Assembly: GCA_963753345.1 (NCBI GenBank)
Contig: CAVWBU010000023.1
Span: 25,987 to 89,986 of the forward strand
Origin: an uncultured Fibrobacterota bacterium
GTDB lineage: Bacteria; Fibrobacterota; Chitinivibrionia; Chitinivibrionales; FEN-1185
Reading direction: 5' to 3'
Length of the DNA: 64,000 bases
Shown: positions 7,646-13,543 of the stretch, piece by piece
How positions within the stretch are numbered: the stretch's first letter is position 1
How the letters are laid out: each line of letters opens with the position of its first letter
Position numbers and translations under genes: made by a program
The notes under the pieces: generated by a model
Database searches by the model: none
Told to the model about the DNA's origin: nothing
The model's input: the letters and a program-made list of their open reading frames with translations, nothing else

Positions 7646-7915
7646 ATGGCCATGATCCGACCAGCAATGGGACACCTGCAACTGCACGGATTTCCGGTGA
7701 TGATGGCGGGGTTCTCGGTGGTGGCGCTATGCGCGGCGTTCTTCGGGATCGGCGTCGCCGCGCATTTCATGACGCATCAGCTCCGGAGCGTGACGTACTT
7801 CTGCGCGCTGGGAGGGCTGGTCGTCTACGCGGCGGGCCGGATCCTCATCATTGTCGAAAAGAGAATGCGCAACCGCGCATCCGAGCAAAAGGACACAACC
7901 GGGGAACTGTCGTGA
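7646..7915 (+). CDS. Small two-TM membrane protein
   Basis: Two hydrophobic segments. The stop overlaps the GTG start of the next gene (GTGA coupling). Confidence 0.6.
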   Translation: MAMIRPAMGHLQLHGFPVMMAGFSVVALCAAFFGIGVAAHFMTHQLRSVTYFCALGGLVVYAAGRILIIVEKRMRNRASEQKDTTGELS

Positions 7916-8379
7916 AAATCCAGGACCTTCTGCAGAAAAACGGCATCATCACCAATCTGGATTCTCCGGACAAGAGCGCGCTGCTCACCCAGATGGCCAG
8001 GTACCTCGCCTCGCTGTACGATATCAAGGACCAGGACCTTATCGTGCGGAAGATCCTGGACAGGGAGGCAGAAGTGTCCACGGGCATCGGCTACGGCATC
8101 GCCATTCCGCATGCCCGCATAGAAGGGATAGACCGCGTCTTTATGATAGCGGGTCGGATGGTGAAAGGAATCGATTTCAACGCGATCGACGAACAGCCGG
8201 TGCACCTCGTTTTCATGATGCTCTCCCCCGCGCACGCCTCCGCCCAGTACACCCAGCTCCTTTCCTCTCTGTCAAGGATCATGTCCTACGAAGAAATCCG
8301 CATCAGCCTGATCGAAACCGAAGACCCGGAAAAATTCCTCGACGTCATAGCCCGCGGCGAAAACAAATACGTGGGGTAA
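7912..8379 (+). CDS. ptsN: PTS EIIA (Ntr/fructose-type) component
   Basis: ILDREAEVSTGIGYGIAIPHAR (phospho-His motif), plus IDFNAIDEQPVHLVF. It lies next to nitrogen regulatory genes. Confidence 0.85.
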   Translation: MKIQDLLQKNGIITNLDSPDKSALLTQMARYLASLYDIKDQDLIVRKILDREAEVSTGIGYGIAIPHARIEGIDRVFMIAGRMVKGIDFNAIDEQPVHLVFMMLSPAHASAQYTQLLSSLSRIMSYEEIRISLIETEDPEKFLDVIARGENKYVG

Positions 8380-8570
8380 CGGGCCCTGTTCCCCGCGCCT
8401 GCCGGCTTTCTGCATGCTGCGGCGCGAGGATCAAGCTGCCCGCGCTTTATCTGCCGTCATGGTTGCTTCCGATACATTTTTGTGTTTTGTTGGGCATGAG
8501 AAGGATTTTTCATTTATTTTGTGTGCTCACCGGGCCGGGCAATCCTGCCGCGTTGTAGCGGAAAACCTTC

Positions 8571-10136
8571 ATGAGCAACCCGAACGAAATAGGCTCCCAC
8601 CTCAGTTTCAACGGCCTCGCCACGCTGTACCGCATCGCCCAGCTCTTGAGCTCCGGCGGCGGCATCGAGAAGATCATGGAGGGCGTGCTTGACATACTGG
8701 AAACGCATGCGGGCATGAAGCGCGGCATGATCTCCATCCTCAACCCCGAGAATTCCGAGCTTGCCGTCGACGTGGGCCGCGGTATCTCCGAAAGCGGCAA
8801 GCAGCGCGGACGCTACCGGCTCGGCGAAGGCATTACGGGGAGGGTGGTGGCCACGGGGAGGCCCATCGCGGTTCCCAAGTTGAGGAACGAGCCCACGTTC
8901 CTTGACAAAACAGGAGCACGCAAAAACCTTAAGGACACCGACCTTGCCTTCCTCTGCGTGCCCATCAAGGCTGCGAACGACGTGGTGGGCGCGCTTTCGG
9001 TTGACAAAGTGAGCGTGGAAAGCGCGGTGACGCTTGAAGGCGAGCTGCAGTTTCTCCAGGCCGTCGCGGCCCTTGTTGCGCAGGTGGTGGTGGCCCGGCG
9101 GAGGCAGCAGGAACTGATTTCGGCCCTGGAACGCGAAAACCTCGAACTCCGCAAGACCCTCGAGGAAAAGGGCAAGCCCGACCAGATGGTGGGAAACAGC
9201 GGCTCCATGCGCGAAGTGTACCGCCAGATCGCGCAGGTCGCTCCGTCGATGACCACGGTGCTCCTTCGGGGAGAAACCGGCACGGGCAAGGAGCTTGTGG
9301 CGCGCGCCATTCACCAGAAGAGCGCCCTTTCGTCCGGACCCTTTGTGCCCGTCAACTGCGCCGCGCTTCCCGAATCGCTTCTGGAAAGCGAACTGTTCGG
9401 GCACGAAAAAGGTTCGTTTACCGGCGCGCTGTCGAAGCACATCGGCAGGTTCGAATCGGCCGACAACGGCACGCTCTTTCTTGACGAGGTCGGTGAAATG
9501 ACCATGTCGGCCCAGGGACGCCTCCTGCGTGCGATCCAGGACAAGGAAATACAGCGCGTCGGCGGCTCCGCGGCCGTCCGCGTGAATGTGCGCCTCATCT
9601 GCGCGACCAACCGCGACCTCGAGGCCGACGTGGCCGAAGGCCGCTTCCGCGAGGACCTTTACTACAGGATAAACGTCTTCACCGTCCATCTGCCCCCGCT
9701 CAGGGAGCGCGGCGCCGACGTTCTTTTGCTTGCCGACTATTTCGTCAAGAAATACGCTTTGCGGAACAAAAAAAAGATCGAGCGCATTTCCACGCCGGCC
9801 ATCGACATGCTCTCCGCGTACCATTGGCCGGGGAACGTGCGCGAACTTGAAAACGTGATCGAGCGCGCGGTCCTTGTGGCAACCGGAAACGTGATAAACG
9901 GCCACGACCTGCCGCCCACGCTCCGCATGAAAGAAGCAAACCTGCAGGGAACACGCAAGGACACCTTTGAAGCAATGGTCGCGGCGTACGAAAAGGAGCT
10001 TATCATGGAAGCGCTCAAGGACGCCCGCGGCAACCAGACAAAAGCCGCGCAGATACTCGGCACCACAAAACGTGTGGTCCAGTACAAGACCCGGAAACTC
10101 GGCGTCGACTTCCGCAGACTGCGCGGCACCGCGTAG
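8571..10136 (+). CDS. NifA-like sigma54 activator (GAF + AAA+ + Fis HTH)
   Basis: GAF segment GEGITGRVVATG; Walker A GETGTGKE; ESELFGHEKGSFTGA; LFLDEVGE; WPGNVRELEN; C-terminal HTH. Confidence 0.93.
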   Translation: MSNPNEIGSHLSFNGLATLYRIAQLLSSGGGIEKIMEGVLDILETHAGMKRGMISILNPENSELAVDVGRGISESGKQRGRYRLGEGITGRVVATGRPIAVPKLRNEPTFLDKTGARKNLKDTDLAFLCVPIKAANDVVGALSVDKVSVESAVTLEGELQFLQAVAALVAQVVVARRRQQELISALERENLELRKTLEEKGKPDQMVGNSGSMREVYRQIAQVAPSMTTVLLRGETGTGKELVARAIHQKSALSSGPFVPVNCAALPESLLESELFGHEKGSFTGALSKHIGRFESADNGTLFLDEVGEMTMSAQGRLLRAIQDKEIQRVGGSAAVRVNVRLICATNRDLEADVAEGRFREDLYYRINVFTVHLPPLRERGADVLLLADYFVKKYALRNKKKIERISTPAIDMLSAYHWPGNVRELENVIERAVLVATGNVINGHDLPPTLRMKEANLQGTRKDTFEAMVAAYEKELIMEALKDARGNQTKAAQILGTTKRVVQYKTRKLGVDFRRLRGTA

Positions 10137-10220
10137 ACCATTGGCCCGCCGATGCTTTGCATTTTCCGCATTCTTCCTGCCGACGAAATTGGAAATCCAG
10201 ATAATTAACCGCGGCGTTCA

Positions 10221-10236
10221 TGGCATGCGCCTTGCA
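10221..10236 (+). promoter_or_regulatory. sigma54 -24/-12 promoter
   Basis: TGGCATGCGCCTTGCA matches TGGCAY-N5-TTGCA, 38 nt before the 10275 ORF. Confidence 0.8.
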
Positions 10237-10274
10237 ATAGAAAAGGCAGACGCGCACTTCATCCAAGGAGCATC

Positions 10275-10556
10275 ATGTCCGGTTCCGCACAGAGAAATCT
10301 CGACCAGATCCTGGCGGGGTTCGAGCGCAACATGATAGAGAAAACGCTGCGGGACACACGCGGGAACCAGAGCGAAGCCGCAAGGATACTTGGCATTTCC
10401 AAACGAAAAGTGCAATACAAGGCCAGAAAATACCGAATCGATTGCAGAGCGTTCAAGGACCGTCACCTGTCGGAAAGGAACATGCTTTTCCCCTGGCAAC
10501 CGCCCGCGGATGCAAACCGTAACACCAGCGAGGATTTCCACAGTCTTCTTCCGTGA
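10275..10556 (+). CDS. Stand-alone Fis-type HTH protein, paralogous to the C-terminus of the upstream NifA-like activator
   Basis: RBS aaggag. FERNMIEKTLRDTRGNQSEAARILGISKRKVQYKARK aligns with YEKELIMEALKDARGNQTKAAQILGTTKRVVQYKTRK. Confidence 0.8.
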   Translation: MSGSAQRNLDQILAGFERNMIEKTLRDTRGNQSEAARILGISKRKVQYKARKYRIDCRAFKDRHLSERNMLFPWQPPADANRNTSEDFHSLLP

Positions 10557-10685: not shown

Positions 10686-10724
10686 ACAAAATTGTGTCCA
10701 AAGAGTCGTTTATTACAATTTTGT
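10686..10724. promoter_or_regulatory. Paired palindromic enhancer candidates (ACAAAATTGT, ACAATTTTGT)
   Basis: Two near-identical palindromes 29 nt apart, 70-110 nt upstream of the amtB sigma54 promoter. Confidence 0.55.
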
Positions 10725-10795: not shown

Positions 10796-10811
10796 TGGCA
10801 CGGATCTTGCA
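10796..10811 (+). promoter_or_regulatory. sigma54 -24/-12 promoter of amtB-glnK
   Basis: TGGCACGGATCTTGCA is a consensus match. Confidence 0.88.
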
Positions 10812-10921
10812 TTTCCAACCACTCCGGAGGAATATCACAAGTAAACGGCATCAGGCATTGTTGCAAGATACCCTAAACACTCATCAAAGATAGAACGGTT
10901 TTAAAACAGGAGGAGGATGCA

Positions 10922-12280
10922 ATGGTGAAAAAAGCTTTTGTGGCCATCGTACTCGGGTTCATCCTGGCGGCGGTCATGCATTCGGTCGGACAACCCGTCG
11001 CCTCGGCGGACACGGTAAAAGCGGTAATTTCCGCCGCGCCCGCTCCAGCCCCGGCTCCCGCCGCGATTCTCAATTCCGGAGACACGGCATGGATGATCGT
11101 GGCCACCGCGCTCGTTATGCTCATGACGCTGCCGGGGCTTGCATTGTTTTACGGCGGCATCGCAAAGCGCAAGGACACTCTTAACGTGATCGCCATGTCG
11201 TTCGTCACGTTTGCAATCGTGAGCGTGCTGTGGGTGATTTACGGATATTCCCTTGCCTTCGGCACCGACGTGCACGGCATTATCGGCAACCTGCAGAAAT
11301 TCATGATGAGCGGCATCAAGGTCGACACGCTTTCCTCGTATCAGAACACCATTCCCGAGTTCATCTTCGTGGTGTTCCAGCTCACCTTTGCCGCGATAAC
11401 GGTTGCGCTGGCAAGCGGCGCGTTCATCGAGCGGATGAAGTTTTCGGCGTGGATATTGTTTTCGATATTGTGGCTCACGTTCGTGTACTGTCCGGTCGCC
11501 CACTGGGTGTGGGGCAACGGCTTCCTCGCCAAACTCGGAGCGCTTGACTTTGCGGGAGGGACCGTGGTGCACATCAACGCCGGCATCGCGGCACTCGTGG
11601 GCGCGCTGGTGCTCGGAAAACGCAGGGAACCCTCGCTTATCCCAAATAACCTTGTTGCGACCGTGACCGGCGCGGGTCTTTTGTGGTTCGGGTGGTTCGG
11701 GTTCAACGCAGGGTCGGCGCTCACCGCGAGCGGACTCGCCTGCGCCGCCTTCATCAACACCAATACGGCAACCGCCATGGCCGCGGTCGCCTGGATGGTC
11801 ACCGAATGGATATTCCACAAAAAGCCAACGGTGCTGGGGCTTGCCTCGGGCGCGGTTGCCGGGCTCGTTGCGATCACGCCGGCGGCCGGTTTCGTCAACG
11901 TGGGCGGCTCAATCATCATCGGAATTCTGGCGGGCGTGGTCCCCTATTTCATGGTTGCGTTCGTCAAGGAGAGGCTCGGCTACGACGACACTCTCGACGC
12001 ATTCGGCATCCACGGCATCGGCGGGACGGTCGGCGCGCTTCTCACCGGGTTCCTTGCCGACCCCGCGATCAACGCGGCGGGCAGAGGCCTGTTCTACGGC
12101 AATCCGGCCCAGGTGAAAATCCAGCTCATCGCCATAGGCACGACCATCGGGTACGACGCGGTTGTCACCTTCATCATCTTCATGGTCGTCAAGGCCGTGG
12201 TGGGCGTCCGCGTGAGCGCAGACGACGAACTTGTGGGAATGGACCAGAGCACGCACGGCGAACGGGCAATGGGATACTGA
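10922..12280 (+). CDS. amtB: Ammonium transporter AmtB
   Basis: GDTAWMIVATALV, FQLTFAAIT, LDFAGGTVVH, LWFGWFGFNAGS and DDTLDAFGIHG. Confidence 0.97.
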   Translation: MVKKAFVAIVLGFILAAVMHSVGQPVASADTVKAVISAAPAPAPAPAAILNSGDTAWMIVATALVMLMTLPGLALFYGGIAKRKDTLNVIAMSFVTFAIVSVLWVIYGYSLAFGTDVHGIIGNLQKFMMSGIKVDTLSSYQNTIPEFIFVVFQLTFAAITVALASGAFIERMKFSAWILFSILWLTFVYCPVAHWVWGNGFLAKLGALDFAGGTVVHINAGIAALVGALVLGKRREPSLIPNNLVATVTGAGLLWFGWFGFNAGSALTASGLACAAFINTNTATAMAAVAWMVTEWIFHKKPTVLGLASGAVAGLVAITPAAGFVNVGGSIIIGILAGVVPYFMVAFVKERLGYDDTLDAFGIHGIGGTVGALLTGFLADPAINAAGRGLFYGNPAQVKIQLIAIGTTIGYDAVVTFIIFMVVKAVVGVRVSADDELVGMDQSTHGERAMGY

Positions 12281-12316: not shown

Positions 12317-12664
12317 ATGAAATACATCGTAGCAATCATCCAGCCGTCGCGGCTCGAGGCCGTGAAGGAGGCCTTGAGCAAGTTGGAAGTGTTCCGCCTC
12401 ACCGTCACCGACGTGGAGGGCATCGGCCGCCAGAAGGGACATACCGAGGTATACCGCGGACACGAGTACAAAATAAGCTTTATCTCCAAAGTCAAACTTG
12501 AGATCGCCGTGGACGACAAGCATGTCGAGCCCATTGTGGAGGCGATCGCATCCGCTGCCCGCACGGGCAAGGAAGGACAGATCGGCGACGGCAAGATATT
12601 TGTCCTCCCGCTCGATGACGTGATGCGGATAAGGACCCGGGAACGGGGCGCGGAAGCGTTGTAG
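12317..12664 (+). CDS. glnK: PII nitrogen regulatory protein
   Basis: GIGRQKGHTEVYRGHEY T-loop and ARTG...GDGKIFV; directly after amtB. Confidence 0.95.
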   Translation: MKYIVAIIQPSRLEAVKEALSKLEVFRLTVTDVEGIGRQKGHTEVYRGHEYKISFISKVKLEIAVDDKHVEPIVEAIASAARTGKEGQIGDGKIFVLPLDDVMRIRTRERGAEAL

Positions 12665-12669
12665 GAAGA

Positions 12670-12700
12670 AGTTCAAAGTTGACAGTTGACGGTTGACAGT
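12670..12700 (+). repeat. Heptamer tandem repeat (agttgac-like, about 4 copies)
   Basis: agttcaa agttgac agttgac ggttgac agt. Confidence 0.6.
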
Positions 12701-12754
12701 AAACGAATAAATGCAACCCTGATCTTGGTTAACTACAATGACAAAGGAAACATC

Positions 12755-13543
12755 ATGAAAAGAATGACTTTCAATCTCCTACTCGCTGCAGCGGTCCTGC
12801 TGTGCCTCAGGACGGCACAGGCCACGCCTTCCACGCAGATTTGGATTCCGTCAACCGACATACAGGGATTCGGTGTCCTTCATCTGGGGTGGGATTCCTA
12901 TATCAAGACACGCCTGGCGGCGGGAGATGTGGGTACCGTTACCAATGGAGGCATAACCGTCGGCGTGTTACCGTTTAAGAAAGTCGGCATGGAAATCGGC
13001 CTTGACTACAGGGATATCAGCTCCAACCACATATATCCGATGTACTTCAATGCCAAGCTGGGGGTTCCTGAAGACGCATTTTTCAAATACATGCCTGCTG
13101 TCGCAATCGGGACTTTCGATGCAGGCACGAAAACCGGCGGCGCAAGTCTCACGAATTTCAACATTACGTACGGCCTTATTGCAAAGAACATCTGGAAGCT
13201 CGGACGCATTTCGGCAGGATACTACGTGGGCAACGACAAAGCCCTCCTTGTTCCGAAAAAGGACGCGCAGGGATTTCTTGTGTCGTGGGACCGTACCCTC
13301 ACCGAAATTTCCGACAAACTATGGCTTGCCGTTGATTACATGGGAGGCTACAACAGCTACGGCGAGTTGAGTGTCGGTGCCTCGTATGCAGTGACGCCCG
13401 ACGCGAGCTTCATCGTCGGATACGACGTTTGGAGTGACGTAAATTCCACGCCGTTGGTCCAGGCAAAACCCACGGTAACGGTCCAGTTTGACGTCAATCT
13501 CCCCGCAATCCAGGATTGGTTTAAGAAGCCGGAAAAGAAATAA
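12755..13543 (+). CDS. Outer-membrane beta-barrel (porin-like) protein in the amtB-glnK operon
   Basis: RBS aaagga, signal peptide ending AQA-TPSTQIW, amphipathic strands, VTVQFDVNL near the C-terminus. Confidence 0.75.
   Translation: MKRMTFNLLLAAAVLLCLRTAQATPSTQIWIPSTDIQGFGVLHLGWDSYIKTRLAAGDVGTVTNGGITVGVLPFKKVGMEIGLDYRDISSNHIYPMYFNAKLGVPEDAFFKYMPAVAIGTFDAGTKTGGASLTNFNITYGLIAKNIWKLGRISAGYYVGNDKALLVPKKDAQGFLVSWDRTLTEISDKLWLAVDYMGGYNSYGELSVGASYAVTPDASFIVGYDVWSDVNSTPLVQAKPTVTVQFDVNLPAIQDWFKKPEKK

Follow-up and report, generated by a model that had tools for sequence, protein, structure and literature searches.

The mini-HTH gene of an uncultured Fibrobacterota bacterium encodes a 93-aa protein that, judged from its sequence, is an ACT-type DNA-binding domain alone, without ATPase and without sensor domain. 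ACT is the NifA-like sigma54 activator encoded beside it, and the gene lies between ACT and the ammonium transporter gene amtB in the window, the whole stretch of 64,000 nucleotides (contig C23) that was analysed. The ingredients of a feedback loop are present: a selected gene for a DNA-binding domain only, a conserved sigma54-type promoter and adjoining ACT-type sites. The mini-protein probably feeds back on nitrogen gene control. In our preferred reading, to which we give a probability of about 0.45, this DNA-binding-domain-only protein is induced by nitrogen limitation, occupies the ACT sites and damps or reshapes activation, forming an operon-linked negative feedback. The mini-gene would be transcribed from its own sigma54 promoter within an ACT-driven nitrogen-limitation regulon that includes amtB-glnK and glnA. 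ACT would bind ACAAWWTTGT palindromes. The recognition helix of the mini-protein is nearly identical to that of ACT, so the mini-protein is predicted to bind the same sites, namely the paired amtB and glnA enhancers and the single sites before the activator genes. At the enhancer it would displace or thin out ACT, and induction would be damped or reshaped. We infer the sign of this effect from the anatomy of the protein; lacking the means to contact sigma54 or hydrolyse ATP, it would lower or reshape ACT-dependent activation by occupying the sites.

The mini-HTH gene spans 10275..10556 (+) and is preceded by an RBS, AAGGAG, at 10265..10270 (+), read from the sequence. Its orthologues also carry AGGAG-type RBSs, and the 93-aa ORF with its own RBS proposed in the initial annotation is borne out. 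Pfam HTH_8 (PF02954) covers residues 14–53 with an E-value of 2.3e-12 and 46.9 bits, well above the gathering cut-off of 22, and the protein belongs to this family. Two weaker HTH families score below their cut-offs. Only HTH-type families are found by Pfam, with no AAA+ or Sigma54_activat domain in the 93-aa protein, so it is not an enhancer-binding protein, for which AAA+ is required. In NCBIfam, the protein matches the AtoC and FlbD models over their C-terminal 50 residues only. BLASTP aligns the mini-protein with ACT residues 458–518 with 25/61 identities (41%, E 1e-15). The likeness to the ACT HTH that had been claimed from a hand alignment is thus confirmed, with 25/61 replacing the hand count of 24/53. 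The paired recognition helices read KRKVQYKARK in the mini-protein and KRVVQYKTRK in ACT, in agreement with the initial description of a shared KRxVQYKxRK helix in a protein that lacks AAA+. The best non-self match of the mini-protein in the genome is the ACT C-terminus (E 1.6e-11; the next is 3.7e-4), and among the 12 sigma54 activators of the genome ACT alone shares the KRxVQYK helix with it. Arg44 and Lys45 are invariant in 22/22 aligned mini-proteins. At the position of Lys45, 22/23 rows of the ACT group have Ile or Val, and KR[IV][IVM]QYK is found in 22/23 of these rows, that is, in every orthologue and the paralogue of G063.

The AlphaFold model of the mini-protein has a mean pLDDT of 77.9, with residues 11–50 at 94–97. 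It consists of a long helix (residues 2–27), the two helices of the HTH (32–39 and 43–52) and an extra helix (57–68); the tail behind it has low confidence. The N-terminal helix is single, and the model has no separate helix A. The disordered tail bears a conserved Trp74 and a C-terminal LLP; Trp74 and LLP or LLLP are found in most members, the exceptions being L047, L049, L050, L052, L053 and hit P0010. The top Foldseek matches are Fis and the DNA-binding domains of NtrC4 and NtrC1, with rmsd values of 0.9–1.2 Å over 46–49 residues; the shortness of the domain makes the E-values weak. The best sequence matches among solved structures are 2m8g (E 3.3e-07), Fis and a NifA entry. A usual microProtein acts by poisoning through a protein-protein interaction domain. 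The mini-protein is likewise small, single-domain and related to a larger regulator (93 aa, HTH_8 only), but its anatomy suggests that competition for DNA sites is a more natural mechanism than protein-interaction poisoning.

The -24/-12 element of the mini-gene, TGGCATGCGCCTTGCA (TGGCAT-N5-TTGCA), is located at 10221..10236 (+), 54 bp before the start. A second element, TGGCACGGATCTTGCA at 10796..10811 (+), is a pattern match in the amtB-glnK promoter that is conserved in the orthologous loci. These are the only two matches of TGGCAY-N5-TTGCW in the 64 kb (chance expectation in the window 0.25; 3 of 100 shuffles reached two), and the whole 4.5-Mb genome has seven. The consensus sigma54 promoter assigned earlier to the mini-gene is therefore one of two in the window. 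The alignment of five orthologous loci shows conserved -24/-12 elements for both the mini-gene and amtB within a spacer that is not conserved; GGCA-N7-TTGC precedes the mini-gene in all five. All 19 distinct members of the family have a [CT]GGC[AC][CTA]-N5-TTGC[ATG] element 50–93 bp before the start. rpoN is present in the genome of the window (G000). With both the -24/-12 element and rpoN in place, the mini-gene is predicted to carry a conserved sigma54-type promoter. Separately, two near-equal Sigma54_DBD matches, at G000:C30:2910-3386 and C29:9109-9585 (204.1 and 203.7 bits; 483-aa frames), suggest two rpoN copies or an assembly duplicate.

The two ACT-type palindromes described in the initial annotation do lie between the mini-gene and the amtB promoter. 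Palindrome 1, ACAAAATTGT (10686..10695), matches ACAAWWTTGT and is a putative enhancer site. Palindrome 2, ACAATTTTGT (10715..10724), follows palindrome 1 at a spacing of exactly 29 bp and precedes the amtB -24 element by 81 bp. The genome contains 16 copies of ACAAWWTTGT, and exact 29-bp pairs are found at two places only, before the amtB and glnA promoters. The glnA pair is at G000:C20:21582/21611, 29 bp apart, before the glnA sigma54 promoter. All five genus genomes examined have the 29-bp pair 76–81 bp before the amtB -24 element. Assignment of the palindromes to ACT is drawn from sites before sigma54 promoters in genomes with ACT only. G063 (ACT, no mini-gene) has a relaxed pair before amtB with 30-bp spacing and one weak site, and G078 (ACT, no mini-protein) has ACT-type sites before a sigma54 promoter, beside a GlnE-like gene. 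The strict 29-bp pattern is found in one of five genomes without the mini-gene (G078) and is absent from G063, G036, G002 and G012. With a PWM threshold for ACT-type sites of at least 14, 18/19 loci have a site no more than 350 bp before or 490 bp after the start of the mini-gene; the PWM is trained on the five genus genomes and glnA, and only loci L039–L053 are independent tests. L051, the sole locus without a nearby ACT-type site, is cut. At the same threshold, the mini-gene promoter has its own upstream ACT-type site in 13/19 family loci and none in the window or in five further type-1 loci. The nearest sites to the mini-gene promoter of the window are the amtB pair, about 465 bp downstream, and any ACT dependence of the mini-gene in the window would rest on that pair. 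The genome also has a second nitrogen cluster (G000:C20:17127-23245), with amt (413 aa), PII, a GlnD-like 833-aa gene, a palindrome pair, the sigma54 promoter TGGCACAGGAATTGCG and glnA.

The gene order in the window is a PTS-EIIA-like gene, ACT, the mini-gene, amtB (10922..12280, +; Pfam Ammonium_transp, E 4e-127), glnK (PII; 12317..12664, +; Pfam P-II, E 1.2e-29) and a conserved 285-aa gene (12686..13543, +). The order from ACT to the 285-aa gene is found in G000, G061, G064, G065 and several metagenome loci, and G062 has the same order as far as amtB, inside which its contig is cut. The arrangement of activator, mini-HTH gene and amtB, whose conservation the initial annotation had proposed as a check, is thus conserved in genus genomes and metagenome loci. 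The 285-aa gene comes after glnK in all complete loci and has no Pfam or NCBIfam match; its product may be an outer-membrane protein, possibly a channel, of the nitrogen regulon. It was also observed to follow glnK or accompany PII genes in nearly every locus of both types (L021–L023, L040–L053). The amtB leader, 100–170 nt long and downstream of the amtB sigma54 promoter, has a conserved mini-ORF of 6–7 codons in 4/5 orthologous loci (L021, L022, L023, L002; peptides MKQQSS*, MKYKSS*, MKQLSSR* and MKQMQSH*), preceded by a conserved CTCAACATAGACAGGA block. In the window (about 10870–10921) only the CTCAACATAGACAGGA block of the leader is kept, and the mini-ORF is absent. An Rfam search for a riboswitch or leader RNA before amtB in three orthologous loci has no match at the gathering score.

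The initial annotation linked the mini-protein to amtB and to this activator specifically, and this part does not hold. In type-2 loci a mini-paralogue is divergent from another NifA-like activator, 44–46% identical to ACT. The recognition helix of that activator differs from that of ACT, and the type-2 mini-paralogue keeps the ACT-type helix. In all eight type-2 loci a site precedes the mini-gene start by 327–344 bp, a position about 100 bp ahead of the divergent activator gene. The units downstream of the mini-paralogues vary: amt2-glnK2-DUF1646 in L026; the 285-aa gene, then amt2 and glnK, in L052; an amino-acid permease–PII fusion and a further PII in L053, and likewise a PII pair beside the mini-paralogue in L050; and nifH-nifI1-nifI2-nifD in L046, with its own second sigma54 element. 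In L044 the mini-gene lies between two 29-bp site pairs, with divergent glnA on one side and amtB on the other. The fusion in L053 (L053:4414-6297) is 628 aa long and carries its PII domain at the C-terminus; the separate PII gene comes next. The mini-gene appears to be the first gene of its unit in several loci. The variety of these units argues that the family is part of the sigma54 nitrogen regulon in general.

ACT (8571..10136, +; 521 aa) has the Pfam domains GAF, Sigma54_activat, AAA_lid and HTH_8, and its orthologues occur across the order. NCBIfam TIGR01817 (NifA) gives 506.7 bits, under the cut-off of 528.85, so ACT is not assigned to NifA. nifH is not found in the 94%-complete assembly of G000, where the best Fer4_NifH match has 27.5 bits over 43 positions. 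Together with the score just under the NifA cut-off, this suggests that ACT behaves here as a general nitrogen regulator. The terminator scan finds a weak hairpin after ACT (10139–10154) and none after the mini-gene, with counts no higher than in shuffles. Directly upstream of ACT is a PTS EIIA_2-type gene (7729–8379, +; Pfam E 1.3e-31), which is possibly EIIA-Ntr-like and has an uncertain start, as the longest frame reaches the domain only at residue 67.

Within genome collections, the mini-HTH family is confined to one Chitinivibrionales genus. Among 81 genomes of the order, the stand-alone frame is found only in G000, G061, G062, G064 and G065, all of the window's own genus, and G065 carries two copies. 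A profile search of 296 Fibrobacterota genomes gives six copies at 134.8–165 bits, and the next match, at 76.7 bits, is an ACT C-terminus. A pattern scan of 185,579 species genomes finds full-length relatives in Fibrobacterota MAGs only, which suggests that the Fibrobacterota mini-proteins are a separate sequence family. A word-indexed search of 5.8 billion proteins returns four clusters only, with 100, 86, 67 and 61% identity, and the closest named homologue is labelled Chitinivibrionales. Further members are found on metagenome contigs, making 19 distinct proteins from 22 loci after identical proteins are merged. A profile search of 1.84 billion representatives gives 6,625 HTH_8-type matches, many of them small (53–130 aa), and the KRKIQYK signature of the family is found in only a handful of these. 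The mini-gene is not found in G063, a 96%-complete genome of the same genus with ACT and amtB, indicating that the mini-protein is dispensable. An unusual repeat architecture was seen in two proteins of the representative library, P0006 (1423 aa) and P0011 (7571 aa), which have six to eight separate HTH_8-like stretches each.

The mini-gene is under selection. Between G000 and G062, the sole pair without synonymous saturation, dN/dS is 0.19 for the whole gene, 0.09 for the HTH core and 0.45 for the tail; the tail evolves faster, with values up to about 0.9. The remaining pairs are saturated (pS 0.66–0.92), with a core pN of 0.15–0.25. Contigs from four metagenome runs span the ORF, and by codon reading all nine listed differences inside it are synonymous, one common to all four runs and eight from one variant contig. 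The low dN/dS and the synonymous-only differences indicate that the gene is maintained and is no decaying copy. A decayed duplicate, the outcome that the initial annotation named as fatal to its proposal, is ruled out by dN/dS, by these differences and by 19 intact members with RBS and promoter. In a tree of 66 columns a single clade (98/95) unites the ACT C-termini from across the order and leaves all mini-proteins outside, and monophyly of the mini-proteins has support of 67/92; the alignment is short, and an old origin and fast divergence after an old duplication would look alike. A recent tandem copy of the 3' end of ACT is ruled out by the position of the mini-proteins outside the ACT clade. 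The initial view of a copied activator domain thus stands as to the type of the domain and fails as to its source: the mini-protein belongs to the ACT family of DNA-binding domains, yet it is no recent copy of the neighboring ACT.

The preferred reading, in which the mini-protein damps activation from the ACT sites, is supported by selection on the gene, the promoter elements in 19/19 members, the presence of rpoN, the helix shared with ACT only, the invariant Arg44 and Lys45, the 29-bp site pairs, the sites near 18/19 loci and the fold of Fis and the NtrC4 domain. According to the available text of PMC10590331, DNA-binding domains without a helix A, the NifA domain among them, are monomers in solution and still bind DNA, and the isolated NifA domain binds its DNA target in vitro. 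The binding favors a DNA-level competitor and the monomeric state counts against it; with no helix A and a precedent for a likely monomer, the strength of competition with a tethered oligomeric activator is uncertain. The 10-bp palindrome is also short for a Fis-type dimer. Other points against damping are that G063 does without the mini-gene, that the mini-gene promoter of the window has no upstream ACT-type site, and that a pure competitor model leaves Lys45, the extra helix and the W...LLP tail without a function.

Alternatively, the mini-protein could be an architectural helper in the manner of Fis or IHF, bending DNA or pre-marking the enhancer and thereby aiding ACT oligomerization or looping in a positive feedback. 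We regard this as unlikely, even if it comes closest to the preferred reading. The fold shared with Fis and the NtrC4 domain is compatible with such a role, the mini-gene comes first, before the genes to be activated, and the invariant Lys45 and helix 4 could add DNA contacts in the model. Fis stimulates the E. coli glnAp2 promoter. However, an ACT-like recognition helix should land on the enhancer itself and not between enhancer and promoter, and no conserved block is found in the enhancer-promoter spacer. In addition, the genome already has four HU/IHF-family genes, and the N-terminal arms and helix A of Fis are absent from the mini-protein.

A single ACT-type site, ACATTTTTGT at 8474..8483 (PWM 16.2), lies 97 bp upstream of the ACT start codon, and equivalent single sites are found about 100 bp upstream of ACT in G061, G065 and G064. 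The site in the window is a candidate autoregulatory site of ACT. Such sites raise a more doubtful alternative, that the mini-protein regulates activator synthesis, repressing or activating the promoters of ACT and the second activator through single palindromes without competing at paired enhancers. The sites about 100 bp before the divergent activator gene in all eight type-2 loci fit this as well. However, single sites could equally serve ACT autoregulation, the promoter scan finds no convincing sigma70-type match before the activator genes, and nothing separates a preference for single sites from one for paired sites.

The tail suggests a third alternative, in which Trp74 and LLP dock on a PII/GlnK-like nitrogen-signalling protein or on ACT, making the mini-protein a PipX-like adaptor. 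The tail motif is kept in most members though the residues around it vary freely, and every complete locus encodes at least one PII protein. We consider this improbable, as any nitrogen operon would be expected to contain PII genes, the tail is the faster-evolving part (dN/dS 0.45 to about 0.9), and it is absent or different in L047, L049, L050, L052, L053 and P0010, of which L047, L050, L052 and L053 are still beside PII genes. The complex prediction for a GlnK trimer with the mini-protein (score 0.01, mark 0.32) speaks neither for nor against binding. Finally, a non-functional remnant of a partial duplication, as a small gene with a domain related to its neighbor's and absent from one genome of the genus (G063) might suggest, is hardly credible given a dN/dS of 0.19 (core 0.09), synonymous population differences, 19 intact members and a position outside the ACT clade.

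The preferred reading of enhancer occupancy can be extended. Sigma54 nitrogen regulons may repeatedly evolve a DNA-binding-domain-only "headless activator" as the first gene of each unit (amtB-glnK, nifHDK, permease-PII), separately transcribed, each induced operon dosing its own enhancer-occupying protein, with the Fibrobacterota family as one independent instance. The conserved W...LLP tail might in addition link this protein to proteolysis or to a protein that reports nitrogen status. We offer this generalization tentatively, as a speculation with the odds against it. If true, the design would give operon-autonomous feedback on a shared master activator, and if it recurs in other phyla it would be a general circuit motif, one undescribed in the literature searched. 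In uncultured Fibrobacterota of peat and sediment, members of the family lead operons for ammonium uptake, amino-acid uptake and nitrogenase. For this lineage without genetics, the analysis provides a regulon model with a NifA-like master regulator, pairs of 10-bp palindromes 29 bp apart, and amtB and glnA as targets.

Fis is among the closest known systems. It is regarded as a descendant of an NtrC-type DNA-binding domain. The mini-protein resembles Fis in being a small, stand-alone HTH_8 protein; the two share the helix B-C-D fold, and their TRGNQ turns are identical. However, the mini-protein scores 27.1 bits on the Fis equivalog NF001659 against a cut-off of 99 and is not a Fis; it has neither N-terminal hairpin arms nor helix A, and the alignment covers Fis residues 53–97 only. 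It also differs in its sigma54-type promoter, its nitrogen regulon, its restriction to one genus, and its extra helix and tail. DNA-binding domain constructs of NifA, NtrC1 and NtrC4 (2m8g, 4l5e, 3e7l/4fth; the G. diazotrophicus NifA domain) match the fold with rmsd values of 0.9–1.0 Å, and those of NifA and NtrC1 lack helix A as the mini-protein does. These constructs are engineered fragments, whereas the mini-protein is a natural, separately encoded and selected gene product with an invariant lysine and its own tail. Papers on the "Fis family" (PMC5623727 and PMC2607301) concern, in their available parts, full-length regulators. In the literature searched, which leaves most subscription journals outside, no stand-alone DNA-binding domain of an activator driven from a sigma54 promoter is described for the control of amtB, glnA or nif. 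As far as their abstracts go, NinH of phage lambda and BldC of Streptomyces are, like the mini-protein, small natural proteins of a DNA-binding domain only, each resembling the DNA-binding part of a larger regulator family. However, NinH is phage-encoded and BldC is MerR-like, and neither abstract mentions sigma54, the enhancer sites of an activator or nitrogen control. Known control of sigma54 activators works through sensor domains and protein anti-activators, and a DNA-binding-domain-only protein would, if the preferred reading is true, add a DNA-level layer by enhancer occupancy. NifL, PspA and HrpV are anti-activators encoded beside or within the regulon of their sigma54 activator, and they bind the activator protein. 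They are unrelated to the DNA-binding domain of the activator, whereas the mini-protein is made of such a domain and would act on the DNA sites.
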